DNA of 64,000 nt from an uncultured Patescibacteria group bacterium (GCA_934699595.1 CAKUWT010000002.1:37065-101064); one strand, 5' to 3'; shown: positions 6,304 through 43,565, counted from the stretch's first letter. Notes: generated from the sequence alone by a model not told the origin. Program-made: numbers and translations.

Positions 6304-6633
6304 TTAAAGTTTTTTTTCGAACTCAACCAAGAGAGCCAGCTTCCGTCTCAGTTCTCGTTTTGGATCTTGAGACCGTAGTAACCAAGCATGATTTTGCCAA
6401 GCGTGGCGGTAGCATTCACGGTTATGGAAAAAGAAGGGATGACCCCAGATAAACATCCGGAGGTGTTTCGGAGATTCTTCGCAGATAGCTCCGCGACAGC
6501 CGCAGATGCAAAGACCGTCCCTGTTGGTAAAGTTGAAAACGTGGTCGAGTACCGCAGCTCGATCTTCTCGATGGATAATCTTCCAGTACTGTTGATCTCC
6601 AGTCTGGTCAACCATCATGTTGCTGTAGTCCAT
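6304..6633 (-). CDS. Small Cys/His-rich protein; possible YHS/TRASH-like metal-binding fold; paralog 1
   Basis: 109 aa. It shares R.AVLDHVFNF..R...CICGC...H..M.IWG...FFH...C.R.A...DP..ELRR.LA with 6820..7131. An AGGAGG SD sits 8 nt upstream of the ATG. Confidence 0.45.
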   Translation of the reverse strand: MDYSNMMVDQTGDQQYWKIIHREDRAAVLDHVFNFTNRDGLCICGCRGAICEESPKHLRMFIWGHPFFFHNRECYRHAWQNHAWLLRSQDPKRELRRKLALLVEFEKKL

Positions 6634-6819: not shown

Positions 6820-7131
6820 TTACATGATGACGTGTACCGCTAGGCGGCGCCTAAGCTCGTGCCGGGGATCTTTTCCTCGCTTCACAGTTTCGAGAACTTT
6901 TCTCGCGCGCCGGTGGCAGCGGAGCGAGTGAAAGAAATAGGCTCGTCCCCAGATACTCATTTTAGAGTGGTCTCCCAGACCACGATGGCGAATAGGTTGT
7001 CCGCAGCCGCAGATACAGACATCGCGCCTGTCTGCAAAATTGAAAACATGGTCAAGCACGGCCGTGCGGTTTTTTTCACGTATTATCACATCGCACTTGT
7101 TGCTGGTGTCGAACAGGTTGACAATATTCAT
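6820..7131 (-). CDS. Small Cys/His-rich protein; paralog 2 of 6304..6633
   Basis: 103 aa with the same conserved CICGC/FFH..C motif. A GAGGAGAGG SD lies upstream of the ATG. Confidence 0.45.
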   Translation of the reverse strand: MNIVNLFDTSNKCDVIIREKNRTAVLDHVFNFADRRDVCICGCGQPIRHRGLGDHSKMSIWGRAYFFHSLRCHRRARKVLETVKRGKDPRHELRRRLAVHVIM

Positions 7132-7260
7132 TCGTCCTCTCCTCTTGCTGAAACTTTCTTCTAGGTAAAATCATACTCAGCCGGAGCGCCAGTGTCAATT
7201 TTTGGTACTCATATATAGATGAGTACCAAAGTACATATTATCTTCTAACTAACAAAACAC

Positions 7261-7284
7261 GCCCCCGAGACTGGACTCGGGGGC
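7261..7284 (-). terminator. Rho-independent terminator
   Basis: GCCCCCGAG-ACTGGA-CTCGGGGGC stem, followed on the minus strand by a T-rich tract. Confidence 0.6.
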
Positions 7285-7303
7285 GCTATGGGTGGTGACA
7301 GCT

Positions 7304-7690
7304 TCAGTAAGCAAGATAGCCGATTCGCATACCGTTGCTCCAAGCCTCCACAATTTGAAAAGTGATTCCCCGGCGGCTGGTCCAGTGTCCAATAGGACGT
7401 TGGTAAATGGGGGTTGGCATCACCACGAAACCGCAGCCGGGACCACTGGGGCTGAGTGCCTGTCTCCGAACATGGACCTTGTTGAGAAATGAGTGTAAGT
7501 TTCTCTTTGAGGTACAGACAGACAGAGCATTCCTCAGAATGATACCTTGGGCTAGGTGAAGATCGGCCGCAGCTGCCTGGTTGGTAAATACCGCCGTGGT
7601 GACCTCGGCGGCGGCCCCGATTGAAGGGTTGCCAAGCAGTAAAGTCGCCGAAGTCAGTAATGTACTGATGACCTTTTTGAAAAAAGACAT
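7304..7690 (-). CDS. Hypothetical secreted protein with an N-terminal signal peptide
   Basis: 128 aa beginning MSFFKKVISTLLTSATLLLGNPSIGAAAE. An AAGGGAGG SD lies 7 nt upstream of the ATG. Preferred over the overlapping 189-aa R/S/P/G-rich ORF. Confidence 0.5.
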   Translation of the reverse strand: MSFFKKVISTLLTSATLLLGNPSIGAAAEVTTAVFTNQAAAADLHLAQGIILRNALSVCTSKRNLHSFLNKVHVRRQALSPSGPGCGFVVMPTPIYQRPIGHWTSRRGITFQIVEAWSNGMRIGYLAY

Positions 7691-7853
7691 GACGTGCCTC
7701 CCTTGTGTCTGATGTCTTCCGACTTTGATTAGACCATATTTTAATTAGAAAAACAATAAGTGCTGTTATTATGGTTAGGGAGTAAAAAGAACGGGAACGC
7801 GGATGCTTTTGCATCCGCGCCCTCGTTCCTTATTAGGGTCCATAGAGTAGCCT

Positions 7854-10268
7854 CTATAAATCATCGACCTCAAGCACAATCTCACCCCCCTTCTCTACTT
7901 GCCCGGCAATAATTTTGTTAGTCGCTGTATCCTCAATTTTTTCTGCAATCAAACGCTGTAAGGCACGTGCCCCAAAACGGTCGTCGTAACTGGCTGCAAT
8001 CAGAGTTTTAATAAACTCAGTACTCACGCGTAGTTTGTAGCCACGATCAGCCATCGACTTTTTAAGTTTATCAACCATTAGGTAAGCGATCTGAAAATAT
8101 TCGTCAGCATTCAAGGGTTCAAAAACCACCACATCGTCAAAGCGATTGATAAGCTCTCGTCGGAAGATACGGTTCTTGATCAGGTTGTCGACAACCGCAC
8201 TTTCAAGTGTGGGTGCGTCCATGCGGGCGGAGGTTGTATGAGCAATTAAATCCGCGGCCGCATTACTGGTTGCGATGATAATGGTGGTACGCAAATTGAC
8301 CCGCTCTCCGCGACCATCGGTGAAAAATCCCTCGTCAAGCATTTGTAGAAATAGATCATGGACGGACTGAGTAGCTTTTTCGAATTCATCAAACAGTAAA
8401 ACAGCATAAGGTTGCTGGCGAATTTTATCGGCCAAAGCTCCCGTCGCCCCTTTTTCACCAATCAGCTTTGCTAAACCGTCTGCCTGACTGTACTCCGACA
8501 TATCAAAACGAATCATGGCATTTTGATCTTTGAACAACACTCGCGATAGTGATTTGGCCGTTTCGGTTTTCCCTACCCCAGTTGGTCCCAGGAATAAGAA
8601 AGAGCCAATCGGTCGTTCAGTTTGACTCATTTGTAGACGAGCTCGGCGCAAGGCACGCGCGATACTGTTAATAGCGGCATCCTGCCCAATCACCTGGCAG
8701 TGCAGCTCGTCTTCCAGACCGAGCAATTGATCGCGTTCAGTATCGTCAATCGGTCCCATCGGTATGCCAGTTTTTTCACTAATATATGTATAGACAAAAT
8801 CTTCCTGCACCAAGTTAGTTTTTTGGCTCCTGACCACGCCGCTGATTTCAGCAAGAAAATCCAAAGCTCGGTCACTGAGGGTTTCCTGTTGTAGGCTGCG
8901 CTTACTTCCGGCCAGAATAGCCTCAAGAGCTGGGTAGGTAAAATAAACTCCCTGATAAGAAAGGTTCCTTGCGGCAGCTTCTAAAAGAGCAAGAACTTTT
9001 TCATCGCTGAGTTCCTCCACCAGGATTTGCTCAAAGCGCCGCACTACTCCACCGAGTGGGGAAATATGTCGATGGAAATTAGCGGGGGTGTCGGTGGCAA
9101 TAATATGTAAACCAGTCATGGCCAAATAATCATCAATCACAATTGGCAAACTCACTTGGTAACGAGCTGTCAAAGCCATCATGTCACTGAAGTTTTCAAT
9201 GATTATGGTGAGATTACCAGCTTCAGCCACCTGATCGAGAATGTCGTGAAAAGCAGCCTCGAGGTCAATCTGGTTTGGATAAGTTAGCACCAGCTTCTCT
9301 ATATCCAGAGGGATTAAGTGTTGTCCCGACAGAGCGTTGAGTGCACGTCCGGAACGAAGTCGCTGTTCAACCGCTAGCAAAATATCCATTTTACCTACCC
9401 CTTCATTACCTATGAGGAGGACATTACTGGCACGGCTATTAGCTAGGGCAACTTCAATTTTTTCAATCTCTGGCAAAAATTGCTTTTCAGCGGAAACTAA
9501 ATTAGCAAATGTGGCGTTAGCACGGAGAGGCTTAGAAAATTCTTCTAAGGCATAGGAATAACCGTAAACCAGTTCTCTTCCTAGGCCGCCGTGTCGTGAT
9601 AAATTATCTCGACTCCACCACCGTTCTCGCCGTAGCGATTCCTGGTGACCGCTGACCAACCAGCGAGCAGTTTTTAGAAAAGTAGCGGGAGTGACGCCTT
9701 CAGATTGAATAAAGTCACTAAAGCCAGTATCTTGCTTAAGGATAGTTTCAGCCAGGCTCCTTAGGGTGAAAGTTTTGGTGGGTAAAGGGATTTCAGTAGT
9801 TTGTAGACGGCGTCGTTCTGGCTGGTTTACCCAACTGTCAACCTTATCCAGATCAAGACCAGCTTGCCAAGCGATGCGTCTGCCCCAGAGAGATTCTAAA
9901 AATTGTCGAGTGAGGTCTCCTTGGTCGGGAATAAGAGTGTCGGCCACTGCAAAAGTAATCCCAGCCTGTGCTTTGTTGTGACTGGCAATAACTGAGTCTA
10001 GACCCCGAAAGTAGAAGCTGTTGCTGTAGGTGTAAACTAAGATTTGCTCTAACCATAAAGCGAAGAGGATCAGATTCAGTCCTAACCAGCGGGGATGATA
10101 CCAATCTGGATATATGGTTAGAGAAAGAATGAGGAAGATCAGTGAGAGGCAAAGTAGGTATAGCAAGGTTAGCCGCAGGCGACGTAGAAATGACCGTGTC
10201 GCTAAACGGTTTAGGATTACGAACGTGCGAAATTGGTTTAGAGTAGAGGTTAAATTTTTCTGATACAT
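7854..10268 (-). CDS. Clp/Hsp100-family AAA+ ATPase (ClpB/ClpC-like) with an N-terminal transmembrane region
   Basis: 804 aa with two AAA+ modules. NBD2 has a canonical Walker A (GPTGVGKT) and Walker B (LLFDEFE). NBD1 has GNEGVGKM and IIIENF. The N-terminal roughly 90 aa are strongly hydrophobic. Confidence 0.85.
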   Translation of the reverse strand: MYQKNLTSTLNQFRTFVILNRLATRSFLRRLRLTLLYLLCLSLIFLILSLTIYPDWYHPRWLGLNLILFALWLEQILVYTYSNSFYFRGLDSVIASHNKAQAGITFAVADTLIPDQGDLTRQFLESLWGRRIAWQAGLDLDKVDSWVNQPERRRLQTTEIPLPTKTFTLRSLAETILKQDTGFSDFIQSEGVTPATFLKTARWLVSGHQESLRRERWWSRDNLSRHGGLGRELVYGYSYALEEFSKPLRANATFANLVSAEKQFLPEIEKIEVALANSRASNVLLIGNEGVGKMDILLAVEQRLRSGRALNALSGQHLIPLDIEKLVLTYPNQIDLEAAFHDILDQVAEAGNLTIIIENFSDMMALTARYQVSLPIVIDDYLAMTGLHIIATDTPANFHRHISPLGGVVRRFEQILVEELSDEKVLALLEAAARNLSYQGVYFTYPALEAILAGSKRSLQQETLSDRALDFLAEISGVVRSQKTNLVQEDFVYTYISEKTGIPMGPIDDTERDQLLGLEDELHCQVIGQDAAINSIARALRRARLQMSQTERPIGSFLFLGPTGVGKTETAKSLSRVLFKDQNAMIRFDMSEYSQADGLAKLIGEKGATGALADKIRQQPYAVLLFDEFEKATQSVHDLFLQMLDEGFFTDGRGERVNLRTTIIIATSNAAADLIAHTTSARMDAPTLESAVVDNLIKNRIFRRELINRFDDVVVFEPLNADEYFQIAYLMVDKLKKSMADRGYKLRVSTEFIKTLIAASYDDRFGARALQRLIAEKIEDTATNKIIAGQVEKGGEIVLEVDDL

Positions 10269-10281
10269 ATATATGTATAAA

Positions 10282-10677
10282 TTAAAACATTAGCCAAAGT
10301 CCGTAAACTAAACAAAAGACAATCAGGGCTGGGGCAGCTAACCAGACAATATAAAAGCAGACACTCAAGATGGTGTAGAGCGTGAGCCCGACTAGTCCAG
10401 TAGTTAACACTGTGAGGCGAATAATCAGACCGAGTAATCTGCTGAGGGTATTAATTATTAGGCGTGTAAGGAATTCCTCTAAATTAAAACCGCGCGCTCT
10501 TGGCTCTGTCATCCGCTTGAAGGGGGCAAGTAAGGAGGCAGGCAGTTCTTTGATGGAAAAAAACTGTACGATAAACCACCAAAAATTACGAAAAACACGT
10601 AAATAAGAAGTGAGAGCTTCACTATAATGCCAACGCAAATAATCGTTAAGAAAGCCAAAAAATAACATAAGTGTCAT
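10282..10677 (-). CDS. Hypothetical integral membrane protein immediately upstream of the Clp-like ATPase
   Basis: 131 aa with several hydrophobic helices, separated by a 14-nt gap from the same-strand downstream gene. Confidence 0.45.
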   Translation of the reverse strand: MTLMLFFGFLNDYLRWHYSEALTSYLRVFRNFWWFIVQFFSIKELPASLLAPFKRMTEPRARGFNLEEFLTRLIINTLSRLLGLIIRLTVLTTGLVGLTLYTILSVCFYIVWLAAPALIVFCLVYGLWLMF

Positions 10678-10770
10678 TAATCCTATTGGTATTATAACCT
10701 AAACTAAATCTGGAGACCGGACTTGTCTGCAGGTAGTGATAAAAGTCTTTTGAGTAGTAGAGGCAAAACA

Positions 10771-10798
10771 AAAACTCCTGGCGTTTACCAGGAGTTTT
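10771..10798 (-). terminator. Rho-independent terminator of cspA
   Basis: AAAACTCCTGG-CGTTTA-CCAGGAGTTTT with flanking T-run. Confidence 0.6.
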
Positions 10799-10821
10799 TG
10801 TTAAGAAGTTACTTGTGCTAC

Positions 10822-25385: not shown

Positions 25386-25832
25386 ATGATGAAATTAATG
25401 AAAGAACGTGGTTTCACCCTCATCGAACTCTTGGTGGTGATTGCCATTATTGGTATTCTCGCCGCTGTAGTCTTAGCTTCACTTAACGATGCACGTAAGT
25501 CTGGTAATGATGCTGCTCTAAAACAATCGATGGCGTCACTAAGATCACAGGCGGAGATTTTCTATAATGAAAATAGTTTTTCTTACAGCGGTTTCTGTGC
25601 CACCTTGGCTACCGGTCAGCCAAACGCAGCTCTAGCTGCCTCAATTCAGAACAATAGTAACGGGGCAGGTGCTCCTGTGTGTGTGCAAAATACCAGTGGC
25701 ACAGGTTGGGCAACCACAGCTATTATATCTTCAGGTAGAAAGTGGTGTGTAGATAGTACTGGAGTGGCTAGGGATATTGCTGCTGCGGCTACAACCCCTA
25801 CAAATGCGGACCCTACTTGTCCAGCTTCTTAA
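25386..25832 (+). CDS. Type IV major pilin, copy 1
   Basis: 148 aa with the prepilin leader MMKLMKERG followed by FTLIELLVVIAIIGILAAVVL, and C-terminal Cys pairs. Confidence 0.85.
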   Translation: MMKLMKERGFTLIELLVVIAIIGILAAVVLASLNDARKSGNDAALKQSMASLRSQAEIFYNENSFSYSGFCATLATGQPNAALAASIQNNSNGAGAPVCVQNTSGTGWATTAIISSGRKWCVDSTGVARDIAAAATTPTNADPTCPAS

Positions 25833-25854
25833 TTTAGTATAAAAACCAAATAAT

Positions 25855-25884
25855 AAAACAAGACCCGTATCCGGGTCTTGTTTT
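25855..25884 (+). terminator. Rho-independent terminator after pilin 1
   Basis: AAAACAAGACCCG-TAT-CCGGGTCTTGTTTT. Confidence 0.65.
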
Positions 25885-26053
25885 ATTATGATTAACTGTC
25901 CCAGTTATATATACCTAGGAGTTATGCACAGACAAAAATAATTACCATACTGGATATAGAGGTTTCTTGTATACTTAAAAAAGATTAAGGTATACAGCTG
26001 TTACCTGAATCAAACTGATAACAAACCTTATCAATAAAAATTTAAGAATCAAT

Positions 26054-26494
26054 ATGATGAAATTAATGAAAGAACGTGGTTTCACCCTCATCGAACTCTT
26101 GGTGGTGATCGCTATTATCGGTATTCTCGCCGCTGTAGTCTTAGCTTCACTTAATGACGCCCGTAAGTCTGGTAATGATGCCGCTTTGAAACAGTCGATG
26201 GCGTCGGTGCGGTCGCAAGCAGAAATTCATTATAATGAAAATGGCTTTTCTTATGCCACTTTCTGTGACAGTGGTACATTGGCTTCTGCCAATGCAGCCT
26301 TGCGTGATTCTATTAGGAATAATAGCAGCGACAACACTAATCCCGTTTGTACTTCGAGTGCAGATGCCTGGGCGGCCTCAGCTAGGATTTCTGACAATCC
26401 CGGTACTACCGCTCGCTATTGGTGTGTAGATAGTACGGGTGCGGCCAGAGAGGGGACGACTGCTCTAGGATCTAGCGCGACAGTTTGTCCGTAG
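26054..26494 (+). CDS. Type IV major pilin, copy 2
   Basis: 146 aa. The first roughly 60 codons and 71 nt of upstream sequence are near-identical at the nucleotide level to copy 1. The C-terminus is divergent. Confidence 0.85.
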   Translation: MMKLMKERGFTLIELLVVIAIIGILAAVVLASLNDARKSGNDAALKQSMASVRSQAEIHYNENGFSYATFCDSGTLASANAALRDSIRNNSSDNTNPVCTSSADAWAASARISDNPGTTARYWCVDSTGAAREGTTALGSSATVCP

Positions 26495-26510
26495 ACCGCT
26501 AGTCTTGAGG

Positions 26511-26549
26511 AAAACAAAAACCGCCATCTTTGATGGCGGTTTTTGTTTT
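26511..26549 (+). terminator. Rho-independent terminator after pilin 2
   Basis: AAAACAAAAACCGCCATC-TTTG-ATGGCGGTTTTTGTTTT. Confidence 0.65.
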
Positions 26550-26575
26550 CCTAAGTATGTTATTATTTGAGGACA

Positions 26576-27043
26576 ATGAGATTGTGCCAATTACAGCTAG
26601 GTAAACAGCGGGGTTTCACCCTCATCGAACTCTTGGTGGTGATTGCAATTATCGGTATTCTGGCTGCCGTAGTTTTAGCTTCATTAAATAGTGCCCGCAA
26701 ACAAGGGAATGATGCTGCTCTAAAACAATCGATGGCGTCACTAAGATCACAGGCGGAGATTTATTACCTAAGAAGTAATTTTACTTACGACGGTTTCTGC
26801 GACACGTTAACCTCCGGAAAAGTTAATGCGCACTTAGGAGATTCGATTAAGAAAAACAGCAACAACAACACTGCTCCAGTTTGTAATGATGAGGATCAGG
26901 TTTGGGCTGCCTCGGCACAGATATCTCCACAGGGTGTAGTGAGCCGCTATTGGTGTGTAGACAGCACGGGAGTCGCCAAGGAGCAGGCTTCTGCTTTGGC
27001 TGGCATGGCTGGCGCACCCGCGGTCGACACCCAGTGTTTGTAA
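26576..27043 (+). CDS. Type IV major pilin, copy 3 (longer leader peptide)
   Basis: The ATG at 26576 gives MRLCQLQLGKQRG|FTLIELLVVIAIIGILAAVVL. The track's TTG at 26567 is an alternative start. The C-terminal half is divergent. Confidence 0.8.
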   Translation: MRLCQLQLGKQRGFTLIELLVVIAIIGILAAVVLASLNSARKQGNDAALKQSMASLRSQAEIYYLRSNFTYDGFCDTLTSGKVNAHLGDSIKKNSNNNTAPVCNDEDQVWAASAQISPQGVVSRYWCVDSTGVAKEQASALAGMAGAPAVDTQCL

Positions 27044-27045
27044 GC

Positions 27046-27387
27046 CCGGCTTCTTCGGTGCGCTCACAGGCGGAGATTCATTATTTAAAAAATGGTTTCA
27101 CTTACACTAGTTTTTGTAACTCTTTTAACTCCGGCCAAGCAAATTTTCCCTTAGGGCAATCAATTAAGAAAAATAGTTATGCCAATGAAGGAATCGCTTG
27201 TATGGATAGAAATTCTAGCTGGGCTGTTGTTGCTCCGGTGTTACGAGAGGGGGGCGAAGTGAAGGCGTGGTGCGTAGACAGCACTGGCTGGGCGGGGATG
27301 CTGCAGGTTTCAGATAGTTTATATTACTATAATGCCAATATCTTAAAGCCAGACTCATGCCACTCCTTTACTCTTGTTGCCAGTTAG
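27046..27387 (+). pseudogene. 5'-truncated pilin copy lacking start codon, leader and N-terminal helix; a silent-cassette candidate
   Basis: Reading-frame homology begins at ...SVRSQAEIHYLKNGFTY..FC...GQSIKKNS...WCVDSTG, matching the pilin C-terminal domains (compare copy 2 ASVRSQAEIHYNENGFSY and copy 3 GDSIKKNS). It directly abuts the pilin 3 stop and is only read through from an out-of-frame overlap, 26902.. in the track. Confidence 0.6.
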
Positions 27388-27462: not shown

Positions 27463-28608
27463 ATGACGCATACACACGAACACAATTTAGATTATAAAAA
27501 ACTATTTACCGTTACTCCTAAAGAGGACTCAACTGTGGAAATTGTCGGAGAGTTACCCTACGAAGCTCTGTTAGAAGAGCGACCAGCCGCTATTAAACAG
27601 TTGGGTAAGCAGTTAAAAGTAGACGGTTTTCGCAAGGGGCACCTTCCGGAAGCTGTGATTATTAGTAAAGTCGGTGAGATGGCTATCTTGACCGAAATGG
27701 CGGAGCGTGCTGTGGCGCATCACTACGGACATATAGTAGAAGCGTTTGAGTTGGCTGCCCTCGGACGTCCGCAGATTGCACTTACCAAAATTGCCCCTGA
27801 GAACCCGCTTGGTTTTACCGCTACAACGGCAGTTTTCCCTGATTTTACTCTACCGAACTACAAGGAAATCGCACACGTGGCTAATCTAAAGAAGGTTACC
27901 GCGGTGGTGGAGGAGGCTGATGTTGATAAACAGATTAGTGATATTCTACGACAAAAGGTCGCATACGAACGTTTGCAAAAAAAAGCAGTTGCTAAATCTG
28001 CAAAAGATAAGTCAGAAGAAACAGCTAATAATAATAAGAACGAAGATGTGATTGAATCCCAGGAAGACTTGGATAAGTTACCTCTTCCCGAACTGACTGA
28101 TGAGTTGGTTAAAACGCTGGGACAACCGGGACAGTTTACTGATGTGACTGATTTTAAAGCTAAGATTAAAGAGCATCTGCAAATTGAAAAAGAACGTGAA
28201 GCAACAGCCAAGAACCGCACCAATGTTACCGAGGCAGTGATGGCGGAGACGAAATTGGTGGTGCCTCGAGTACTCCTAGATGCAGAACTTTCGCAAATGT
28301 GGGCAGAGATGCAAGACAATTTGTCACAAGCCAATCTACAGATGGGTGACTATTTAAAACATATTAAAAAAACTGAGACTGAGCTCAAGAAAGAATGGGA
28401 GGGCGACGCTAAAAAACGGGTGGAGTTGCAGTTGATTTTGAGCGCGATCGCGAAAGAAGAACAGCCAGAACTTGATCAGGAAGCTGTCACGGGTGAAGTG
28501 GAGGCAATTCTCAAGCAATACCCGGGAGCTGATGAAGAGCGAGTAAGGTCTTACGTTACTAATATGATGACCAATGAGGCGGTGATGAAAATGCTAACCG
28601 AGGCCTAG
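27463..28608 (+). CDS. tig: Trigger factor-like chaperone lacking the PPIase (FKBP) domain
   Basis: 381 aa with the ribosome-binding signature VDGFRKGHLP (E. coli IDGFRKGKVP) and N- and C-terminal domains alignable to TF. The FKBP region is replaced by a K/E/N-rich linker. Confidence 0.65.
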   Translation: MTHTHEHNLDYKKLFTVTPKEDSTVEIVGELPYEALLEERPAAIKQLGKQLKVDGFRKGHLPEAVIISKVGEMAILTEMAERAVAHHYGHIVEAFELAALGRPQIALTKIAPENPLGFTATTAVFPDFTLPNYKEIAHVANLKKVTAVVEEADVDKQISDILRQKVAYERLQKKAVAKSAKDKSEETANNNKNEDVIESQEDLDKLPLPELTDELVKTLGQPGQFTDVTDFKAKIKEHLQIEKEREATAKNRTNVTEAVMAETKLVVPRVLLDAELSQMWAEMQDNLSQANLQMGDYLKHIKKTETELKKEWEGDAKKRVELQLILSAIAKEEQPELDQEAVTGEVEAILKQYPGADEERVRSYVTNMMTNEAVMKMLTEA

Positions 28609-28656
28609 AGTCGTTCCTGACAGTTCGTATTTTTGTGGTATGCACAGGATTAACCT

Positions 28657-29232
28657 GTGCAGGAGGTAACAAGTAGACCGATAAAGGTTATACTAGTGGG
28701 GATGTTGATATGCTATCGAAGTTTGGCAGCGTTTTTAGTAGGGAGCAGCTTATGGCTGTGGCCCCTAGCTATTTTGGCTGAGGAGACGGTAATGGCAACG
28801 ACAACAGCTGAGGAAACGGTCGCTACCAGCACACCCTCTTTGATGGGAGCTTTGTCCTCGGTGGGGCAAACTCGATTACAGGTTTTATTTAATGCTCAAA
28901 ATCGCCGCCTGAGTTTGGCAGTACAACGTTTAGAAAATATTACCAAGCGTTTAGAGACGCATATTCCAGAAGATTTGGAAGAAGTTGAGAGTTATGAGCA
29001 ATTATCCTCTGAGACTAAAGCGGAACTAGCTATTTGGATGGCTAAAGAAACTTTGACCACGGCTAAGACAGCTCTTGGTCAGGCTGAAGGTCGTAACGCT
29101 ACCGTCCTTTTGAGTCCAGATCCAGAATTTGTTTGGCAGCAACTAAAAACTGAGTATTTGGCAGTTGAGCATGCTTTGAAAGCGACTCAAAATGCTCTTG
29201 AGCTAGCTTTGTATAATTTAATTATTAAATAA
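28657..29232 (+). CDS. Hypothetical protein with an N-terminal hydrophobic segment
   Basis: 191-aa ORF with no recognisable motif; the start codon is uncertain. Confidence 0.3.
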   Translation: MQEVTSRPIKVILVGMLICYRSLAAFLVGSSLWLWPLAILAEETVMATTTAEETVATSTPSLMGALSSVGQTRLQVLFNAQNRRLSLAVQRLENITKRLETHIPEDLEEVESYEQLSSETKAELAIWMAKETLTTAKTALGQAEGRNATVLLSPDPEFVWQQLKTEYLAVEHALKATQNALELALYNLIIK

Positions 29233-29234
29233 CC

Positions 29235-29732
29235 ATGCCTGATCCGACCAAAACACAGCCTGATTTTTCTCGAGAAGAGATGATTATGCCTAAAGACGAT
29301 AGTGGAATACGACTAGTTCCTGCGGCCAAGGTGAGTAAATCAGTTAGCAAGGTTTTTGTGGTGACAGCGCTTGGTCTATTGTTGGTAACAGCGCTAATCA
29401 TCCTGGGCGCACTGTTTCTACCCAAGGTTGATTGGCGGCAATGGCTTGCGGGGTCGTCGGCAGATTTTGTTGTTGAAGAAAAAGTGCCTCCATTTATGGT
29501 CAAAACAGAAGCACCTGAAAAAAATCAGGATTTGGAAGATTTGATGAAATATAGTGAATCAACAGATTTGGAAGCAATCGCTACCGATTTGGCCGCAACT
29601 GATTTTAGAAATATTTTACTGGAGGTGAACCAGATCGAGCGTGAGATCAAGGCTGATCTAGCTACTAGCGCTAGCAGTAGCGACCCTGCTCTCCATGTTG
29701 GTGATGAGGATGAAGCGGAAGAAGAGAGATAG
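29235..29732 (+). CDS. Hypothetical single-pass membrane protein with an acidic C-terminus
   Basis: 165 aa with TM VFVVTALGLLLVTALIILGALFL and a D/E-rich tail. Confidence 0.35.
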   Translation: MPDPTKTQPDFSREEMIMPKDDSGIRLVPAAKVSKSVSKVFVVTALGLLLVTALIILGALFLPKVDWRQWLAGSSADFVVEEKVPPFMVKTEAPEKNQDLEDLMKYSESTDLEAIATDLAATDFRNILLEVNQIEREIKADLATSASSSDPALHVGDEDEAEEER

Positions 29733-29800
29733 GACAAGTTAGTAAATAATAAAACCGTCTAGCATGAGACGGTTTTATTATATTGGTTGTCAATTTGTCT

Positions 29801-30319
29801 CTAATCTTGTTGTTGGTACATCTCTACACTTTTAGTAAAAGCGTCCTTGGCGGCAGTGGCGCCAGACCATTCGCCCACACTTACCTCTTTATGTTGGACT
29901 TTTTTATAGGTTTCAAAGAAATGCGTCATCTCTTTGATAAAGTGCTTGTTGAGGTCAGCTAAGTCTTGCACATCGTCGAAACGAGGATCGTCAATCGGAA
30001 CCGCCACCACTTTATCGTCACGGTCGCCGCCATCAATCATTTCCATGATAGCCACCGGACGCGCTCGCACGAGAATACCTGGAGCGAGTGGGTAAGTGGT
30101 AAGCAGCACCACATCTAGAGCGTCGCCATCATCAAATAGTGTCTGCGGTACAAAGCCATAATCGAAAGGATAGTCTTGAGCGGTATGCATCACTCGGTCA
30201 AGAGCAATAATGCCGGTTTCTTTATCAATCTCGTACTTATTCTTAGAGAACTTTGGAATTTCAATAATCACATTCATTGCCTCAGTAGTACCGGCAGGAA
30301 TATCATGTAGTAGGTTCAT
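29801..30319 (-). CDS. ppa: Inorganic pyrophosphatase (family I)
   Basis: 172 aa with the DGDALDVVLL motif and overall PPase pattern. Confidence 0.9.
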   Translation of the reverse strand: MNLLHDIPAGTTEAMNVIIEIPKFSKNKYEIDKETGIIALDRVMHTAQDYPFDYGFVPQTLFDDGDALDVVLLTTYPLAPGILVRARPVAIMEMIDGGDRDDKVVAVPIDDPRFDDVQDLADLNKHFIKEMTHFFETYKKVQHKEVSVGEWSGATAAKDAFTKSVEMYQQQD

Positions 30320-30349
30320 ATTATTGTTTAATTAAGAAATAGTAAAACC

Positions 30350-31732
30350 TTAGACGGTCTCATCAGTTTTATTTGCTTCGGTGACCTCCGGCTCTCCTTC
30401 AGCTGCTTCTACAGCATCAATAGCTGCTTCCGCCTCCTCAGGAGTGTCGACTGGGTCTTCTTCGTCACGATCAGGATTAAGGCCACGGTCTTCTGTGCGC
30501 TCATCGCCAGGATCATTAGCTGGAACAGAGTCGATGATATCAGTAGTGACTTCTTCGGGAGCTTCTTCTCCCGCTTCCGGAGTACTGGAAACAATGTCAA
30601 TTTTCCAACCAGTCAACTTGGCAGCTAAGCGCACATTTTGTCCGCCACGACCAATGGCTAGTGACTGTTGATCGGTCTGGACCACAGCTTCAGCATGGCC
30701 ACGTTCGTTGCTTTCCTCATTAGGTTCGCTAAGAATATTTACTTGCAAGACTCGCGCAGGTAGTAAAGCGTCCTCGACGAACTCCTCATTGACTGGGGAC
30801 CATTCGATAATATCAATTTTTTCTCCACCCAGCTCACTCATTACGGTGCTAACGCGCACTCCGTGCTGTCCAACCAAAGAGCCGACGGGATCAACATATT
30901 CGTCATGAGAAAAGACAGCAATTTTAGACCGAGCACCGGCTTCACGAGCTACTGCTTTTACTTCCACGGTGCCGTTTTGTAGCTCAGGAGTCTCTTGGGC
31001 GAACAGTTCCACCAAGAAATCAGGATGTGCCCGAGAGAGTTTTAAGAATACGCCGCGAGAGCTTTCCTCCACGGCCAACAGTAGTGCCCGAATACGATCG
31101 CCAGGTTTGTAGCGCTCACCAGGAATCTGTTCTTCGTAAGGCATCATGGCAGTGACGCGACCAAGGTCGACGTACAAGAAGCCCCGTTCAAAACGTTGCA
31201 CCTGTCCGACCACAATTTGTCCAGCTTTTTGGCCAAAGTCTGCCATGGCCGCGTCTTTTTCAGCTTCCCGGAATTTTTGCATAATCACCTGCTTGGCAGT
31301 CTGGGCAGCAATCCGACCAAAGTCTGACTTACTCTCGAGTGAAAAGGCCAATTCCTCACCCGGCTCCACATCACGCTTAATCATGCGGGCAGTATCAATC
31401 ATGATGTGCTTCTCCTCATCGAAACGAACTTTCTGGTCGGTGTCCTCGCTGATCTCCTCAGTTTCAGTAGTATTTTCTCCAGTTTCATCCTCGTCTTCCT
31501 CACTTACTTCACGAATCATCTCGGGACTAACCGCGATTTTAATTTGTTCAAACACGACGTTACCCGTCGCTAGGTCAAAATGCGCCTTAATCACTTGGCC
31601 GCGCTGCCCGTATTCCTTTTTGTAAGCGGTTGCGAGTGACTGCTCAATCGCTTCAATAATCCGTTCGCGGGAAATACCGCGCTCGGTCTCCATTTCTTCC
31701 AGGACGGAGTTGATGGCTTTTAAATCAAACAT
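30350..31732 (-). CDS. nusA: Transcription termination/antitermination factor NusA
   Basis: N-terminal domain, S1 and two KH domains, and an acidic C-terminal tail. The start at 31732 (MFDLKAINSV...) is preferred over the upstream in-frame ATG at 31810. Confidence 0.9.
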   Translation of the reverse strand: MFDLKAINSVLEEMETERGISRERIIEAIEQSLATAYKKEYGQRGQVIKAHFDLATGNVVFEQIKIAVSPEMIREVSEEDEDETGENTTETEEISEDTDQKVRFDEEKHIMIDTARMIKRDVEPGEELAFSLESKSDFGRIAAQTAKQVIMQKFREAEKDAAMADFGQKAGQIVVGQVQRFERGFLYVDLGRVTAMMPYEEQIPGERYKPGDRIRALLLAVEESSRGVFLKLSRAHPDFLVELFAQETPELQNGTVEVKAVAREAGARSKIAVFSHDEYVDPVGSLVGQHGVRVSTVMSELGGEKIDIIEWSPVNEEFVEDALLPARVLQVNILSEPNEESNERGHAEAVVQTDQQSLAIGRGGQNVRLAAKLTGWKIDIVSSTPEAGEEAPEEVTTDIIDSVPANDPGDERTEDRGLNPDRDEEDPVDTPEEAEAAIDAVEAAEGEPEVTEANKTDETV

Positions 31733-32067: not shown

Positions 32068-33822
32068 ATGGACATTAAGGATAAGCAACTAAAAGAATTT
32101 ATTCTCGACTCTGGGTTGATTACTAAGGGGGAACTGGTCGAGGCTGAGAAAGTGGCGGCTGAGGAAGGGCGGACTTTGGCGGAGGCTTTGGTAACTAGTG
32201 GGCAGATTACCGAGGACGATATGCGTCGGGTGAATTCTTATATCACTGGTATCCCCTACATCTCTCTGAAAGATTTACAGAACATTGATTTTGAAGTGCT
32301 ATCTCTTATTCCAGAACCAGTCGCCCGTACTCATAATATCGTCGCATACAAAAGAACCGATCGTGAGCTTGAGGTGGCCATGCTGGACGTGGCTGATTTG
32401 GCAGCGATTGATTTTGTTAAGAAGAAAGTGGGTTTAAAAATCCTTCCTAGGCTGACAGACAGCGAATCAATGCGTCGGGCTTTACAGCGCTATCAGAAAA
32501 CTCTTAAGGATGAGTTTGGCGACTTTATTGCTGAGGATGCCAAAGCTTTAAAAACTATTAAAACAGAAGATGGTAGCGAAGTATCAGAGACTGATTTAAA
32601 AAAGATGGCCGAGGATTTGCCAGTGGTGCGGATCGTAGACACGCTTTTGCGGCACGCGGTTATTCAGAATGCTTCCGATGTGCACATTGAGCCGATGGAA
32701 GAGGAGGTTTTGGTCCGGTACCGGATTGACGGTATTTTGAGTGATGCCATGAAGCTGCCCAAAAGTGCGGCTGATATGATTGTGGCGAGAATCAAAGTGT
32801 TGTCTAATTTGAAGCTTGACCAAAAACGTCTTCCGCAAGACGGGCGGTTTAAGATTGAGATGGATGGGCAGAAAGTCTCTCTCCGTGTTTCAGTGTTACC
32901 AATTTATTTTGGAGAAAAGGTGGTGATGCGCTTGTTGCGGGAGAATCGCTCGGGGTATTCCTTGGAGGGTATCGGTTTTCATGGTCAGTCTTTGGAAAGA
33001 ATTCATCGGGCTATGCGCACCACGACAGGAATTATCCTTATTACCGGACCGACCGGATCTGGTAAGTCCACCACTTTATATACTATTTTGGATTTACTCA
33101 ATACTCCGGAGGTAAATATTTCTACGATTGAAGACCCAATTGAGTACCAGATGCCGCGGATTAACCAGACTCAGGTGAAGCCAGACATTGGTTTTACTTT
33201 TGCCAACGGTTTGCGTACGCTCATGCGACAAGATCCGGACATCATTATGGTGGGTGAGATCCGCGATCAAGAGACAGCTAGCTTGGCGATCAACGCTGCT
33301 CTCACAGGTCACTTAGTTTTAGCCACAGTACACACTAACTCCGCCGCTGGGACAGTAGCCCGCTTGACCGATATGGGCGTGGAGCCGTTTCTCTTGGTCT
33401 CTACTTTGCGAGTGGCGGTGGGACAACGTCTGGTGCGTAAGCTCACTGATGATAAAATTCCTTATATACTTAGCAAAGCCGAACGAGAAGAGTTGGCGCG
33501 ACATGCCAATATGGATTTGGTCTTGGCAGCCTTGAAGGAAGAAGGGGTGGTCAAAGGTAGTGCTACCTGGAATGATGTGGAGTTTTATCACCCCAAGGAA
33601 AACGGACTAACAGCCGATGGTTACCAAGGGCGGATGGGTATTCATGAGGTGTTTGAGGTGTCTGCGGCTATTAAAGAGTTGGTGATTGGACACAGGACAG
33701 GTGATGAGATTGAGGCTGAGGCCAGAAAAACTGGTATGCTCACGATGATGGAGGACGGTATTTTTAAAGCTGCCCGCGGACTTACGACTGTAGAAGAGGT
33801 CTTACGTGTAATTAATGAATAA
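32068..33822 (+). CDS. pilB: Type IV pilus assembly ATPase PilB (GspE family)
   Basis: 584 aa with N-terminal GSPII domains and Walker A GPTGSGKSTTLY. Confidence 0.9.
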   Translation: MDIKDKQLKEFILDSGLITKGELVEAEKVAAEEGRTLAEALVTSGQITEDDMRRVNSYITGIPYISLKDLQNIDFEVLSLIPEPVARTHNIVAYKRTDRELEVAMLDVADLAAIDFVKKKVGLKILPRLTDSESMRRALQRYQKTLKDEFGDFIAEDAKALKTIKTEDGSEVSETDLKKMAEDLPVVRIVDTLLRHAVIQNASDVHIEPMEEEVLVRYRIDGILSDAMKLPKSAADMIVARIKVLSNLKLDQKRLPQDGRFKIEMDGQKVSLRVSVLPIYFGEKVVMRLLRENRSGYSLEGIGFHGQSLERIHRAMRTTTGIILITGPTGSGKSTTLYTILDLLNTPEVNISTIEDPIEYQMPRINQTQVKPDIGFTFANGLRTLMRQDPDIIMVGEIRDQETASLAINAALTGHLVLATVHTNSAAGTVARLTDMGVEPFLLVSTLRVAVGQRLVRKLTDDKIPYILSKAEREELARHANMDLVLAALKEEGVVKGSATWNDVEFYHPKENGLTADGYQGRMGIHEVFEVSAAIKELVIGHRTGDEIEAEARKTGMLTMMEDGIFKAARGLTTVEEVLRVINE

Positions 33823-33830
33823 GTGGTCCT

Positions 33831-35060
33831 ATGAAAAAGTTTACCTACGAAGGCGAAGACGCAAGTGGTAAAAGAATCAAGGAGACTATTACTGCCAAAG
33901 ATCGTTACGCGGTATACGATATTGCTCGTGCCGAGGGACATCGAGTGACGGCTGTTAGCGAGTACAAGAATTTTTCTCTAGAGTCGCTAATTAATGTTGA
34001 GAAAATTAATCAAAAGCTCAGTCGTGTCAAACAGGATGAGTTAGTAATGATGACTCGGAACCTTGGTTCAATGTTGACAGCTGGTTTGACGGTAACCAGG
34101 GCGTTGTCAGTTATCGAAAGGCAAAGTAGTAACCCTAAACTAAAGGGGGTGATTAACCAGGTAGTAGAAGATGTTAACAAAGGAGGTCAGTTTTATGATG
34201 CTCTGAAAAAGTCTCCTAAAATTTTTGATAATTTATATGTAGCCATGGTGCGGGCGGGAGAAGAGAGTGGTAACTTAGCGGAATCGCTCAAAACCCTATC
34301 TTTGCAAATGGAGCGTTCTAGTAATCTAAAGAAAAAAATCAAGGGAGCCATGATTTATCCCTCGATCGTAATTGCGGTGATGGTGGTTATTGGTATTCTG
34401 ATGATGATCTTTGTGATGCCGGCTATCACTGGTATCTTCAAAGATATGGGTAACGAACTACCTGGGACGACCAAAGTTTTAATTGCAACCAGCGACTTTT
34501 TGGTAGCTAATACTATTTTGTCGTTAGTGACATTAGTTGGGGTGATTGTCGGCTTTATCTATTTCTTAGGTACTAAAATCGGCAAGCACTTCACTTCATG
34601 GCTGGTGGTACGGTTGCCAGTTATTGGTACCATGGCCAAAGAGACCAATGCAGCTCGAACGGCTCGAACACTATCGTCCTTATTAAATTCTGGGGTTGAT
34701 GTGTTGCAGTCTTTAGAGATTACTGAGGAAGTGGTACAGAATATTTACTACAAGCGGATTTTGCACGAAGCCGGTGAGAGGGTGGAAAAGGGTACTCCTC
34801 TCTCGACGACCTTTATTGCTCACAACCAACTTTACCCTATTCTGGTGGGAGAAATGATTCTGGTGGGAGAGGAAACTGGACAAATCGCCGGTATGTTGGG
34901 TGAGCTGGCAATTTTTTATGAGAACGAAGTAGAGAGAAAAACTAAAGATCTCTCCACCATTGTGGAACCATTATTAATGGTTGTAATCGGCGCCTCGGTT
35001 GGTTTCTTTGCCTTGGCTCTGATTGCGCCAATTTATTCTATTTCCGATGGCTTGTCTTAG
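33831..35060 (+). CDS. pilC: Type IV pilus inner-membrane platform protein PilC (GspF family)
   Basis: 409 aa with duplicated GspF domains and TM helices. Confidence 0.9.
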   Translation: MKKFTYEGEDASGKRIKETITAKDRYAVYDIARAEGHRVTAVSEYKNFSLESLINVEKINQKLSRVKQDELVMMTRNLGSMLTAGLTVTRALSVIERQSSNPKLKGVINQVVEDVNKGGQFYDALKKSPKIFDNLYVAMVRAGEESGNLAESLKTLSLQMERSSNLKKKIKGAMIYPSIVIAVMVVIGILMMIFVMPAITGIFKDMGNELPGTTKVLIATSDFLVANTILSLVTLVGVIVGFIYFLGTKIGKHFTSWLVVRLPVIGTMAKETNAARTARTLSSLLNSGVDVLQSLEITEEVVQNIYYKRILHEAGERVEKGTPLSTTFIAHNQLYPILVGEMILVGEETGQIAGMLGELAIFYENEVERKTKDLSTIVEPLLMVVIGASVGFFALALIAPIYSISDGLS

Positions 35061-36771
35061 AAACAAACTTACCGGACGCGGCTTCTCATTGGTGGAGACA
35101 CTGGTGGTCTCGGCATTGATACTGGTGGTTTTTAGCGGTTTGATTTTAGGCTTCAAGTATTCTCTCGAGTTAATTCTGACTAGTCGGGCCCGGTTATCGG
35201 CGCTATCTGTAGCTACAGATCGGATGGAGTACATTCGCTCGCTATCGTATGATGACGCTGGCACAGTGGGAGGGATCCCAGCCGGGTCTATCCCACAAAC
35301 TCAAGTTATCAGCCTGAACGGTATTGATTTTACTGAGCGAATACTGATTGAATATCAGGACGACCCGGCTGATGATCTGGCCCCAACCGATTTAATCCCC
35401 ACCGATTATAAAGCGATACAAATCAGTTACGAGTGGACGGTAAATGGTAAGACCTACTCCACCTCACTGAGCAGCAATATCGTTCCCCGGTCTCTTGAGA
35501 CTAGCGCGGGCGGTGGATCCATTAGGGTGCGGGTTTATGATGCGGGAGCCAACCCGATAGCCGGGGCGGAGGTGAGACTAGTCAATAATTACGCCACCAC
35601 AACCGTCGACACTGTCAGAACTACCAACAGCAATGGGGAGGCTTTGTTTTTGGGAGCAGCGGCCGGTTCAGAGTATGAATTATCTGTGACCAAAGCCGGG
35701 TACTCCACAGATGGTACTTATCGGGCTGATGCCAAAGTGGTCACCCCTTACTCCGCTCCCTTTCCGGTGCTGGAAGGAGATGTGGTGGCGCTTAACTACT
35801 TTATAGATAAATTAAGCGATTTACACGTCGCTACTTATAGCAGTATTACTGACGCTAGTGTGGCTGTCGATATGAATGATAGCAGTCAGGTAGTAGCTAG
35901 TGATCAGGTAGTATTAAATGGCGGGCAGTGGCAATTGGCAGAGATTTCTCCCGGAGTTTTTGCAGACAGTGGACAAATTATGTACCAATTGCCGACCCCT
36001 GCACCACTAGCCGCTTGGCAGAACTTGACGCTTAGTAAGAACTTAATTCCCGGGACAAACCTACGTTACCGAATTTACCAAGGATACGCCTCTCCCGTAC
36101 TGGTCCCAGATACTGACTTACCCGGTAATAGTTTAGGATATGTAAGCGACGCCATTGATATTTCTGGACTTAATCCCGTCACTTATAACGAGCTGGTTTT
36201 GGGAGTTGATTTTGAAACTAGTGACTCAACAATCACCCCACAACTGTTGGGTGTAAAAAATAATTACTGGTCTGAGGCCACAGTTTTGCCTAATGTCAGC
36301 TTTGCTCTTGATAGTATGAAAATTATCGGACAAGATGGTGACGGAGCGGATGTCAGTAAGAATAGCTATGCGATGAATACGGCGGGTAATGGCAAGGCAC
36401 TATTAAGTGATATTGAGTGGGACTCGTATAATTTCGTCAATGCTGGTTACGATGTGATCAGTGCCTGTACCGGCGATCCGGTATCGGTAGCGCCTGGCAC
36501 CGAAGATAATCTGACATTAGTCCTCCAGCCCAAAATACCTAATAGTTTAAGAGTGGTGGTAAAAAATAATGAGCAGCAACCAATAGCTGGAGTGGCGGTT
36601 TCTTTGTCAGGTAGTGGGGTGACTAAAAATTTGGAGAGTGATTTTTGTGGACAGGCTTTCTTCCCCGGCCTGACCAAGGACGGTAACTACACGGTGACGG
36701 TTGATTATGAGGGGGTAACCCAGACCGTGGATGTGATTGGGGGACAGACAGCGGCGACGGTAATCTTTTAG
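35047..36771 (+). CDS. Large pseudopilin / minor pilin-like protein with a prepilin-type N-terminus and beta-rich C-terminal domains
   Basis: The ATG at 35047 overlaps the pilC stop. The leader MACLRNKLTGRG|FSLVETLVVSALILVV matches the prepilin cleavage/methylation motif. About 575 aa. Confidence 0.7.
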   Translation: MACLRNKLTGRGFSLVETLVVSALILVVFSGLILGFKYSLELILTSRARLSALSVATDRMEYIRSLSYDDAGTVGGIPAGSIPQTQVISLNGIDFTERILIEYQDDPADDLAPTDLIPTDYKAIQISYEWTVNGKTYSTSLSSNIVPRSLETSAGGGSIRVRVYDAGANPIAGAEVRLVNNYATTTVDTVRTTNSNGEALFLGAAAGSEYELSVTKAGYSTDGTYRADAKVVTPYSAPFPVLEGDVVALNYFIDKLSDLHVATYSSITDASVAVDMNDSSQVVASDQVVLNGGQWQLAEISPGVFADSGQIMYQLPTPAPLAAWQNLTLSKNLIPGTNLRYRIYQGYASPVLVPDTDLPGNSLGYVSDAIDISGLNPVTYNELVLGVDFETSDSTITPQLLGVKNNYWSEATVLPNVSFALDSMKIIGQDGDGADVSKNSYAMNTAGNGKALLSDIEWDSYNFVNAGYDVISACTGDPVSVAPGTEDNLTLVLQPKIPNSLRVVVKNNEQQPIAGVAVSLSGSGVTKNLESDFCGQAFFPGLTKDGNYTVTVDYEGVTQTVDVIGGQTAATVIF

Positions 36772-43084: not shown

Positions 43085-43145
43085 CTAGAATCGGCAAATT
43101 GTATTAGGGACAGTTTTTCGCTATGATAGATACATTACGTAATAT

Positions 43146-43565
43146 ATGGAAAAAATTTTCGTCAATACGGATGGTGGCGCTCGAGGTAATCCGGGACCAG
43201 CAGCAGTGGGGGTGTTTGTGACGGATGCTGACGGGAAGATGCTGAAGGAGGTAAAACAGACTATCGGTAATAGCTCTAATAACTTTGCCGAGTATCAGGC
43301 GGTGCTGATCGGGCTTGAGACTCTTAAGCAAATGTATGGTAAGGCCACTAGGGATAAAGAGATTGTTTTGCGCTTAGATAGTGAGTTGGTAAAGAAGCAG
43401 CTGAACGCTGAGTACCAAATAAAGGAACCAGGCCTGGTACCCAATTTCATTGCCATTCATAACTTACGTGTGACGAATTTTCCACATCTTACTCTCCAAC
43501 ATGTACCGCGGGAGCAGAACAAAGAAGCTGATCGCCTGGTTAACGAAGCCTTGGATGGTCAGTAG
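43146..43565 (+). CDS. rnhA: Ribonuclease HI-like protein
   Basis: 139 aa with NTDGGARGNPGPAAVG...NNFAEYQAVLIGLETL matching the RNase H fold motifs. Confidence 0.75.
   Translation: MEKIFVNTDGGARGNPGPAAVGVFVTDADGKMLKEVKQTIGNSSNNFAEYQAVLIGLETLKQMYGKATRDKEIVLRLDSELVKKQLNAEYQIKEPGLVPNFIAIHNLRVTNFPHLTLQHVPREQNKEADRLVNEALDGQ

Follow-up and report, generated by a model that had tools for sequence, protein, structure and literature searches.

Few AAA+ machines are understood as well as the Clp/Hsp100 unfoldases, which are described as soluble motors that thread their substrates by means of tyrosine-bearing pore loops. The substrate entry side of every Hsp100 is the face formed by the N-domain and the first ATPase module (D1), and ClpA, ClpC and ClpB share two AAA+ modules, a ClpB_D2-small domain and intact catalytic and sensor residues in the second module (D2). 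Here, a two-gene locus encoding a small membrane protein and a membrane-anchored Clp/Hsp100-like ATPase is described from a stretch of DNA of 64,000 nucleotides of an uncultured Patescibacteria group bacterium (GCA_934699595.1, CAKUWT010000002.1:37065-101064), which is referred to as the window and in which positions are counted from the first letter.

Other described systems that resemble this locus work at membranes. FtsH, which has been implicated in the removal of proteins from the membrane, has two N-terminal transmembrane (TM) helices and a cytoplasmic AAA+ ring whose entry face is turned to the membrane; Bcs1 performs translocation without threading. In the Plasmodium export translocon (PTEX), the ClpB-type Hsp100 HSP101 is likewise found at a membrane together with a membrane protein, the pore-forming EXP2; HSP101 is itself soluble, keeps its pore-loop tyrosines, docks with its D2 exit face on the pore and pushes cargo out. 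Msp1/ATAD1 extracts membrane proteins (PMC12793716), and Pex1/Pex6, acting with Pex15/PEX26, forms a double ring of a hydrolysis-dead D1 scaffold and an active D2 that extracts a membrane-associated client (PMC9265785).

Compared with ClpA, ClpC and ClpB, the ATPase of the window carries an N-terminal TM hairpin, a D1 without the catalytic Glu and the Mg-binding Thr, and an obligate small membrane partner; it is without both pore-loop tyrosines, the ClpP-docking IGF/IGL loop and the M-domain, and it scores three- to four-fold under every NCBIfam cut-off.

Placement of the ATPase within the Clp/Hsp100 class

Two minus-strand open reading frames (ORFs) are arranged head-to-tail in the window, the gene of the small membrane protein being followed after 13 nt by the ATPase gene (Table 1). 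Pfam, NCBIfam, phmmer against the PDB and Foldseek assign the ATPase to the double-ring Clp/Hsp100 class, with two tandem AAA+ modules and then ClpB_D2-small. The best Foldseek matches of its AlphaFold2 (AF2) model, which was built on 77 family sequences and has a predicted local distance difference test (pLDDT) score of 85.7, are subunits of the ClpC and ClpB hexamers (E 5e-43). The Pfam matches fall in D2 only, with AAA_2 at residues 552-712 (2e-40) and ClpB_D2-small at residues 719-798 (8e-17).

The NCBIfam models for ClpB, ClpA, ClpV, ClpK and ClpG match at 250-350 bits, against cut-offs of 885-1900. ClpB (TIGR03346) is the top match with 353 bits (equivalog cut-off 1232), and ClpA (TIGR02639) and ClpV (TIGR03345) reach 312 and 253 bits against cut-offs of 993 and 885, respectively. 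The connector between D1 and D2 measures 80 aa (range 70-84), compared with 201-202 aa in the ClpB references, and shows no coiled coil in the AF2 model. Because the M-domain is absent, the ATPase is predicted to have no ClpB-type coupling to DnaK; ClpA is likewise without the long M-domain. The ClpP-docking loop [LIVM]-G-[FL], sought between sensor-1 and the Arg finger, was found in 0 of 243 family sequences, and for this reason the name under which databases list these proteins, "ATP-dependent Clp protease ATP-binding subunit", is probably misleading. A survey of gene context revealed no type VI secretion system (T6SS) genes in the window or in related loci.

Since there is no M-domain, no ClpP loop and no T6SS context, and since the scores stay under the cut-offs, the ATPase is judged to be neither ClpB, ClpA/C/E nor ClpV; by these comparisons it is homologous to Clp/Hsp100 but outside every named Clp family. 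Proteins with its N-terminal module fall into 646 clusters at 50% identity. Identical proteins are already held in public databases (P0001, P0099) under no specific name. Full-text literature searches yielded no published account of a membrane-integral Clp/Hsp100 or of this family of the candidate phyla radiation (CPR), and as far as the literature was searched we found no description of an Hsp100 that combines membrane integration, a dead D1 and tyrosine-less pore loops.

Membrane anchor and N-terminal region

A first-pass annotation of the window had described a Clp/Hsp100 ATPase anchored in the membrane by about 90 hydrophobic residues. The anchoring is borne out by hydropathy, modelled helices and charge distribution; the N-terminal stretch is indeed hydrophobic, but it consists of an amphipathic, Lys/Arg-rich helix and two hydrophobic helices rather than of one continuous segment. 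AF2 places helices at residues 6-22, 25-51 and 58-86 (pLDDT 88-95). Kyte-Doolittle windows of 19 residues peak at 2.56 (residues 34-52) and 1.61 (residues 62-80) in the ATPase of the window, and the averages over 146 close relatives peak at 1.90 and 1.70, with two windows of at least 1.3 in 135 of the 146. Two TM helices are, accordingly, predicted by the individual hydropathy profile, the AF2 model and the family average. Residues 1-31, which precede TM1, contain on average 4.8 Lys/Arg, whereas the 6-residue loop that joins the two helices averages 0.4, and because of this positive-inside bias the predicted topology is N-in, loop-out, C-in, with the ATPase domains in the cytoplasm. The conserved polar motif LWLEQxLxxSYHNSYYFRGL closes TM2 at its cytoplasmic end.

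The hairpin region (ATPase residues 1-90, window 9999-10268) also gave a sub-threshold match to PF24838, "octameric membrane protein 8xMP", in 5 of 24 members (best E 0.01). This similarity probably reflects TM composition and was not used as evidence.

The hairpin is followed by a helical N-domain, which is possibly a diverged Clp_N-like double repeat. The AF2 helix pattern is compatible with Clp_N, as are the Foldseek alignments, which cover up to 788 columns of full-length ClpC; Pfam gave no match to Clp_N (PF02861) for residues 100-215 even at E<=1 in 24 members. Next to the N-domain lies the motif RWWSRDNLSR, in which R216 and L223 are invariant and W217, W218, S219 and D221 are conserved to at least 90%. 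The pattern by itself retrieves 70 loci.

Degeneration of D1

The state of D1 was surveyed in the 146 close relatives, in 97 full-length representatives of 50%-identity clusters and in 104 proteins from Levybacteria. The last set stems from a distant relative of the ATPase (P0086, 31% identity), which belongs to a large Levybacteria family (class Microgenomatia) whose members measure about 790 aa. Residues of D1 are given in ClpB numbering.

Alignment of D1 with E. coli ClpB confirmed that the Walker motifs quoted in the first-pass annotation, GNEGVGKM and IIIENF in place of hhhhDE, are real, correctly assigned and degenerate, and the family-wide counts agree. In Walker A, K212 is retained and the Mg-coordinating T213 is replaced by Met; in Walker B, D278 is changed to Glu and the catalytic E279 to Asn. 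R331 and R332 are retained in the window's D1. Among the close relatives, position 213 is Thr in 12, position 278 is Glu in 122 and position 279, the catalytic one, is Asn in 111 of the 146 sequences; Glu does not rank among the frequent residues there. The wider sample of representatives retains K212 in 30/97, E279 in 4/97 and R331 in 23/97. In the Levybacteria set, the Walker B Asp is Pro in 94 of 104 proteins, and the Arg fingers are lost.

Judged by these alignments, D1 is a conserved pseudo-ATPase without catalytic Glu, Mg-binding Thr and pore-loop Tyr. Selection for hydrolysis, and in many lineages also for canonical nucleotide binding, has been lifted from D1, while it is kept as a folded module. 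The "regulatory" role that had been suggested for it is unlikely if regulation is to work through nucleotide sensing, because distant relatives lose even the Walker A Lys (K212) and the arginine fingers (R331), and because the Levybacteria have Pro for the Walker B Asp. A structural scaffold ring fits better than a nucleotide-sensing regulator; such a pattern is known from NSF-D2, p97-D1 and Pex1/6-D1.

D2 catalytic residues and pore loop

D2 had been called canonical, which holds for its catalytic centre. Walker A (K567/T568), Walker B (D627/E628), sensor-1 (N669), the Arg finger (R709) and sensor-2 (GAR, R768) are all present; the catalytic and sensor residues are conserved in 95-97 of the 97 representatives (K in 96, DE in 95-96), and D2 is fully conserved in 104/104 of the Levybacteria proteins. 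The description fails for the pore loop, which is without the GYVG tyrosine. This loop is 6 residues shorter than that of ClpB and, wherever the gap is put in the alignment, is free of aromatic residues; it is likewise shortened and non-aromatic in 119 of the 146 close relatives. In the distant representatives the loop comprises 7-9 residues, and about half of them retain Phe or Tyr. The Levybacteria loop, GAPPG--EGEE.GEL, corresponds to the ClpB loop minus its tyrosines.

Both aromatic pore loops (KYR in D1, GYVG in D2) are absent from the window's ATPase. Classical hand-over-hand threading, which is presumed by "extraction" and by "translocation" alike, the two activities named in the first-pass annotation, is in doubt because D2 would have to perform it without a pore-loop tyrosine.

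The small membrane protein

The small protein counts 131 aa from the first ATG; according to database copies and homologues, the family-consistent start is M4, the second Met, at position 10668, giving 128 aa (10282..10668). Its family comprises at least 414 members of about 129 aa, which are annotated as hypothetical, and no match was obtained for it in Pfam, PADLOC or PHROG. In the AF2 model (pLDDT 90), the N-terminal part forms two aromatic-rich helices with the motif YLxWHYS. It is followed by a Lys/Arg-rich loop with the motif FFSIPQL..SW.SPWKR and by an amphipathic helix with two invariant Arg. The protein ends in a TM hairpin, whose helices have family-mean hydropathies of 2.65 and 2.46, contain no charged residues and are joined at Ala-Pro. 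"Polytopic", the term of the first-pass annotation, is a fair description of this protein. A sub-threshold match to PF20990 (DUF2207_C), seen in 28 of 101 members with a best E of 0.028, probably reflects composition and was not used as evidence.

Linkage of the two genes and distribution of the module

When one genome per GTDB species was scanned with the N-terminal profile of the ATPase, 70 loci emerged, all of them in Patescibacteria, namely in Kaiser-, Nomura-, Taylor-, Adler- and Vogelbacteria and in other Parcubacteria/Paceibacteria. At 69/70 of these loci the ATPase gene is immediately preceded, on the same strand, by the small gene, the sole exception being cut by a contig end. A reverse search starting from the small protein revealed the N-terminal module of the ATPase directly downstream in 49/49 assessable metagenome loci. 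The pairing, first noticed at the single locus, is obligate in both directions.

The distance between the genes has a median of 3 nt and is at most 30 nt in 70 of 72 pairs, and 16 of the 72 overlap by 4 nt (ATGA). These short or overlapping distances indicate co-transcription and probably translational coupling. A fused gene was found in none of 146 representatives. In a mirror-tree analysis controlled for D2, the small protein co-varied best with the TM region of the ATPase (partial r 0.50, compared with 0.34-0.38 elsewhere), a modest preference that is weak evidence. Every other neighbouring gene family is limited to 25 of 73 loci or fewer, and the surrounding genes are housekeeping genes (PNPase, S15, XerC/D, cold-shock protein, ExoIII and CCA-adding enzyme).

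Two N-terminal hydrophobic helices are also present in 80 of the 104 Levybacteria proteins. A homologous membrane protein of 108-110 aa with the motif SLP.LIRT.FRPWKNEY is encoded directly upstream in 3/3 loci examined, at a distance of 3 nt or with a 4-nt overlap. Because the Levybacteria carry this sister version with the main traits, the two-gene module is taken to span at least two CPR classes, Paceibacteria and Microgenomatia. The Levybacteria small genes are located at L076:3-440, L133:2671-2997 and L134:2672-3004, with the ATPase genes downstream and the module beside nusA-infB; gene callers had missed the small gene in L134 and L005.

Operon boundaries

Terminator-like hairpins bracket the gene pair, which for this reason reads as a self-contained bicistronic operon. 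The upstream hairpin, which separates the cold-shock gene from the operon, was recognised by eye and is absent from the output of the automatic terminator scan. Promoter and terminator sites in that scan were no commoner than in shuffled sequence, and only the two hairpins flanking the operon are cited here. Inspection of the short promoter region by eye revealed no CIRCE-like heat-shock operator.

Table 1. Features of the two-gene locus and its flanks, in window coordinates.
Feature	Position	Strand	Remarks
Intrinsic-terminator-like hairpin after upstream cold-shock gene	10765..10799	-	AAAAACTCCTGG-TAAAC-GCCAGGAGTTTTTGTTTT, with T-run; by eye
TATAAT, -10-like hexamer upstream of small gene	10691..10696	-	consensus match only, read from sequence
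Small membrane protein gene	10282..10677	-	131 aa from first ATG; K/R-rich loop motif also written FFSIxxL...PFKR
Small protein, C-terminal TM helical hairpin	10285..10410	-	VLTTGLVGLTLYTILSVCFYIVWLAAPALIVFCLVYGLWLMF; family hydropathy; translation verified
Clp/Hsp100-like double-AAA+ ATPase gene	7854..10268	-	804 aa; stop codon included
N-terminal amphipathic K/R-rich helix	10203..10253	-	residues 6-22; AF2 helix
TM hairpin	10011..10196	-	residues 25-86; contains conserved LWLEQ...Y(S/H)NSFYFRGL; hydropathy, AF2, family alignment
Helical N-domain	9624..9971	-	residues 100-215; 7 AF2 helices
RWWSRDNLSR motif	9594..9623	-	residues 216-225; most conserved family-specific element outside D2
D1 (first nucleotide-binding domain, NBD1), predicted pseudo-ATPase module	8814..9458	-	residues 271-485; aligns to E. 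coli ClpB 193-406, 56 bits
D1 Walker A, GNEGVGKM	9387..9410	-	residues 287-294; aligns to E. coli ClpB GEPGVGKT
D1 pore-loop equivalent, LTYPNQIDLE	9258..9287	-	Y251 position Asn here, Asp/Glu across family
D1 Walker B equivalent, TIIIEN	9192..9209	-	residues 354-359; aligns to ClpB LFIDEL
D2 (NBD2) and ClpB_D2-small	7857..8813	-	residues 486-804; 244 bits to ClpB D2 (512-849)
Truncated D2 pore loop, GEKGATGAL	8433..8459	-	replaces ClpB GAPPGYVGYEEGGYL; short beta-turn in AF2
Intrinsic-terminator-like hairpin directly after ATPase stop codon	about 7785..7822	-	12-bp stem, 8 GC pairs, T tail

Other genes in the window

A protein of 128 aa with a signal-peptide-like N-terminus is encoded just downstream of the ATPase terminator (7304-7690, minus strand) and has a terminator of its own (7286..7259). 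No family match was obtained for it, and other loci with the pair do not have it as a conserved neighbour. Two tandem paralogous genes (6304-6633 and 6820-7131, both minus strand), placed between the ATPase operon and a XerC/D gene, encode proteins of 109 and 103 aa, which are 47% identical (BLASTP E 3e-25) and share the Cys/His-rich motif AVLDHVFNF..R..CICGC...H...IWG..FFH...C.R. Neither matches Pfam, PADLOC or PHROG; they may bind zinc.

On the plus strand, type IV pilin-like genes are followed within a few kb by PilB-like (T2SSE) and PilC-like (T2SSF) genes (25386-27387 and 32068-35060). Three or four pilin-like genes stand in tandem, with a near-identical N-terminus (MKLMKERGFTLIELLVVIAIIGILAAV...) and divergent C-termini; the fourth ORF (26902-27387), which shares sequence with the end of the third by overlap, could be either what is left of a pilin gene or an artefact of the reading frame. 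Adjoining RecJ and ComEC (competence channel) genes at 41357-45261 (+) are consistent with a capacity for DNA uptake. Candidate surface or adhesion proteins are a large CarboxypepD_reg/Ig-like repeat protein encoded directly after pilC (35023-36771, +) and an H-type lectin domain protein (62505-63347, +).

In many bacteria, the trigger factor gene (tig) is followed by clpP-clpX. At 27463-30350 in the window, clpP-clpX is absent from this place, and after tig come two unannotated proteins (165-191 aa) and an ORF resembling inorganic pyrophosphatase.

Proposed mode of action

The picture that we favour is a D2-driven membrane complex with its entry face toward the membrane, acting on membrane-embedded or membrane-associated proteins. 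Its architecture is much more certain than its function, which we infer, and to the picture as a whole we give an even chance.

The ATPase and the small protein would assemble into a single stoichiometric complex in the membrane. This is presumably a hexameric ring, in which the 12 TM helices of the ATPase would pack with those of the small subunit. D1 would serve as the assembly or scaffold module that holds the ring together, like NSF-D2, p97-D1 and Pex1/6-D1, and D2 would be the sole motor. The N-terminal anchor would turn the N-domain/D1 entry face to the membrane, as in FtsH and Msp1, which makes membrane proteins the likely clients; by analogy, this orientation is consistent with extraction rather than export. 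The complex would engage such proteins, extract or remodel them and set them free in the cytoplasm; no proteolysis would be coupled to this, and neither ClpP nor DnaK would be needed. Its grip on the substrate would be non-canonical, with RWWSRDNLSR, the N-domain and the small subunit as candidates instead of tyrosine pore loops.

Several points weigh against this proposal. Both pore-loop tyrosines are lost, contrary to the classical threading that extraction normally requires; as a qualification, about half of the distant representatives keep Phe or Tyr in a D2 loop of 9 residues, so the requirement varies within the family. We infer the oligomeric state and the contact with the small protein only from gene linkage, and the housekeeping neighbours give no hint to function. 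The assignment of the N-domain to Clp_N is not confident either, the comparison with the ClpB N-region by hhalign reaching 74% probability and being partly driven by the start of D1.

By mode of operation, FtsH and Pex1/Pex6-Pex15/26 would be the nearest analogues. With FtsH the ATPase shares only the N-terminal anchor of two TM helices, with the entry face on the membrane side. In FtsH, one AAA module of the classical clade is fused to an M41 protease, and about 70 aa between the TM helices form a periplasmic domain, whereas here there are two Clp-type modules and an external loop of 6 residues; no protease domain was found in the ATPase, and Pfam gave no match to Peptidase_M41. With Pex1/Pex6-Pex15/PEX26 the module shares a dead D1, an active D2 and a place at the membrane in company with a small membrane protein. 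This likeness is functional only and does not extend to family membership, as Pex1/6 is Cdc48-like, of the classical clade, eukaryotic and soluble, is recruited by its anchor protein and keeps its D2 pore-loop aromatics. Msp1/ATAD1 and Bcs1 likewise have an N-terminal TM anchor and act on membrane proteins, but they are single-ring classical AAA proteins, eukaryotic or organellar, and have no small obligate partner gene. PTEX differs in orientation, the anchor here being on the D1 entry side.

Alternative explanations

Among the alternatives, the one that survives best, although we consider it unlikely, is a non-threading, ATP-driven gate or conduit, in which the TM hairpins and small subunits form a pore or basket that D2 hydrolysis opens, closes or drives, either for transport across the membrane in the manner of Bcs1 or PTEX or for control of a channel formed by the small protein. 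A non-threading mechanism would be in keeping with the missing pore-loop tyrosines, and a hexamer would bring 12 TM helices plus those of the small subunits. Conserved polar residues lie in or at the membrane, namely LWLEQ in TM2 and the two invariant Arg beside the small-protein hairpin, and CPR bacteria depend on uptake from their hosts. The 8xMP matches in 5/24 N-terminal regions, a ring-forming family, pointed the same way but are weak, far under threshold and were set aside. Against a conduit stand the extracytoplasmic loops, which with only about 6 residues offer no external receptor or docking surface, and the orientation of the ATPase, which has its entry face and not its exit face at the membrane, the opposite of PTEX.

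In a broader form, which we hold to be rather improbable, the pair would be an unrecognised membrane-embedded AAA+ machine of CPR bacteria, with dead D1, tyrosine-less D2, 12 TM helices and the small subunit together making up an ATP-driven conduit or gate. Such a machine would work without threading, in the uptake or hand-over of macromolecules or in the insertion or extraction of envelope components.

It is similarly doubtful that the module serves a single envelope machine, such as the type IV pilus or the apparatus for competence or for division, as its dedicated assembly or disassembly factor, in the way of NSF or Torsin. The high conservation of the N-domain and of the RWWSRDNLSR linker suggests a specific partner, the presumed D1 scaffold ring resembles NSF and Pex1/6, and pilus and competence genes are plentiful in CPR genomes, this window included. 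However, none of the genes for pili, competence or division is a consistent neighbour of the pair, and the pilus and ComEC genes of the window are 15-35 kb away.

Less probable again is a tethered general disaggregase, that is, a ClpB role on soluble aggregates parked at the membrane, with the small protein as anchor or assembly factor. D2 is most similar to the D2 of ClpB (244 bits), the top NCBIfam match is ClpB, ClpB_D2-small is present, and stress or chaperone genes are occasional neighbours (a cold-shock protein in the window, DnaJ in L134). The NCBIfam ClpB score of 353 is, however, far under the cut-off of 1232, D1 is dead, and the M-domain that ClpB/Hsp104 needs for DnaK-dependent disaggregation is missing, as are both pore-loop tyrosines needed for ClpB threading. 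Nor would parking account for the obligate membrane partner or for the strict conservation of the TM hairpin motifs.

A Dodola-related anti-phage defence module, in which DolB is a ClpB-like ATPase, is very improbable and was rejected: the PADLOC models DolB and PDC-M37B do match D2 (about E 1e-37), but the match is limited to the generic AAA_2 core (residues 507-681), the ATPase here is double-ring and membrane-anchored, the small protein has no PADLOC match and hence there is no DolA, and the synteny in two CPR classes is conserved and housekeeping (PNPase, S15, Xer, CCA enzyme, NusA, IF-2) instead of that of variable islands. A phage origin was rejected as well, the only PHROG match being a generic Clp ATPase family and the context chromosomal.

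Significance

The proposed membrane complex would set apart a clade of Hsp100 proteins that are membrane-integral, driven by D2 only and deprived of both pore-loop tyrosines, with D2 nevertheless under strict purifying selection. The family tests the reach of the hand-over-hand threading model and would provide a natural example of a scaffold D1 ring within the Clp lineage. This combination of traits should surprise AAA+ specialists, and it is biochemically easy to test.

The envelopes of CPR bacteria and their dependence on hosts are poorly understood. The pair described here appears to be a conserved, chromosomally core and uncharacterised membrane complex in at least Paceibacteria and Microgenomatia. 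If the gate or conduit reading were true, either role, uptake or hand-over of macromolecules or insertion or extraction of envelope components, would be central to the host-dependent lifestyle of these bacteria.

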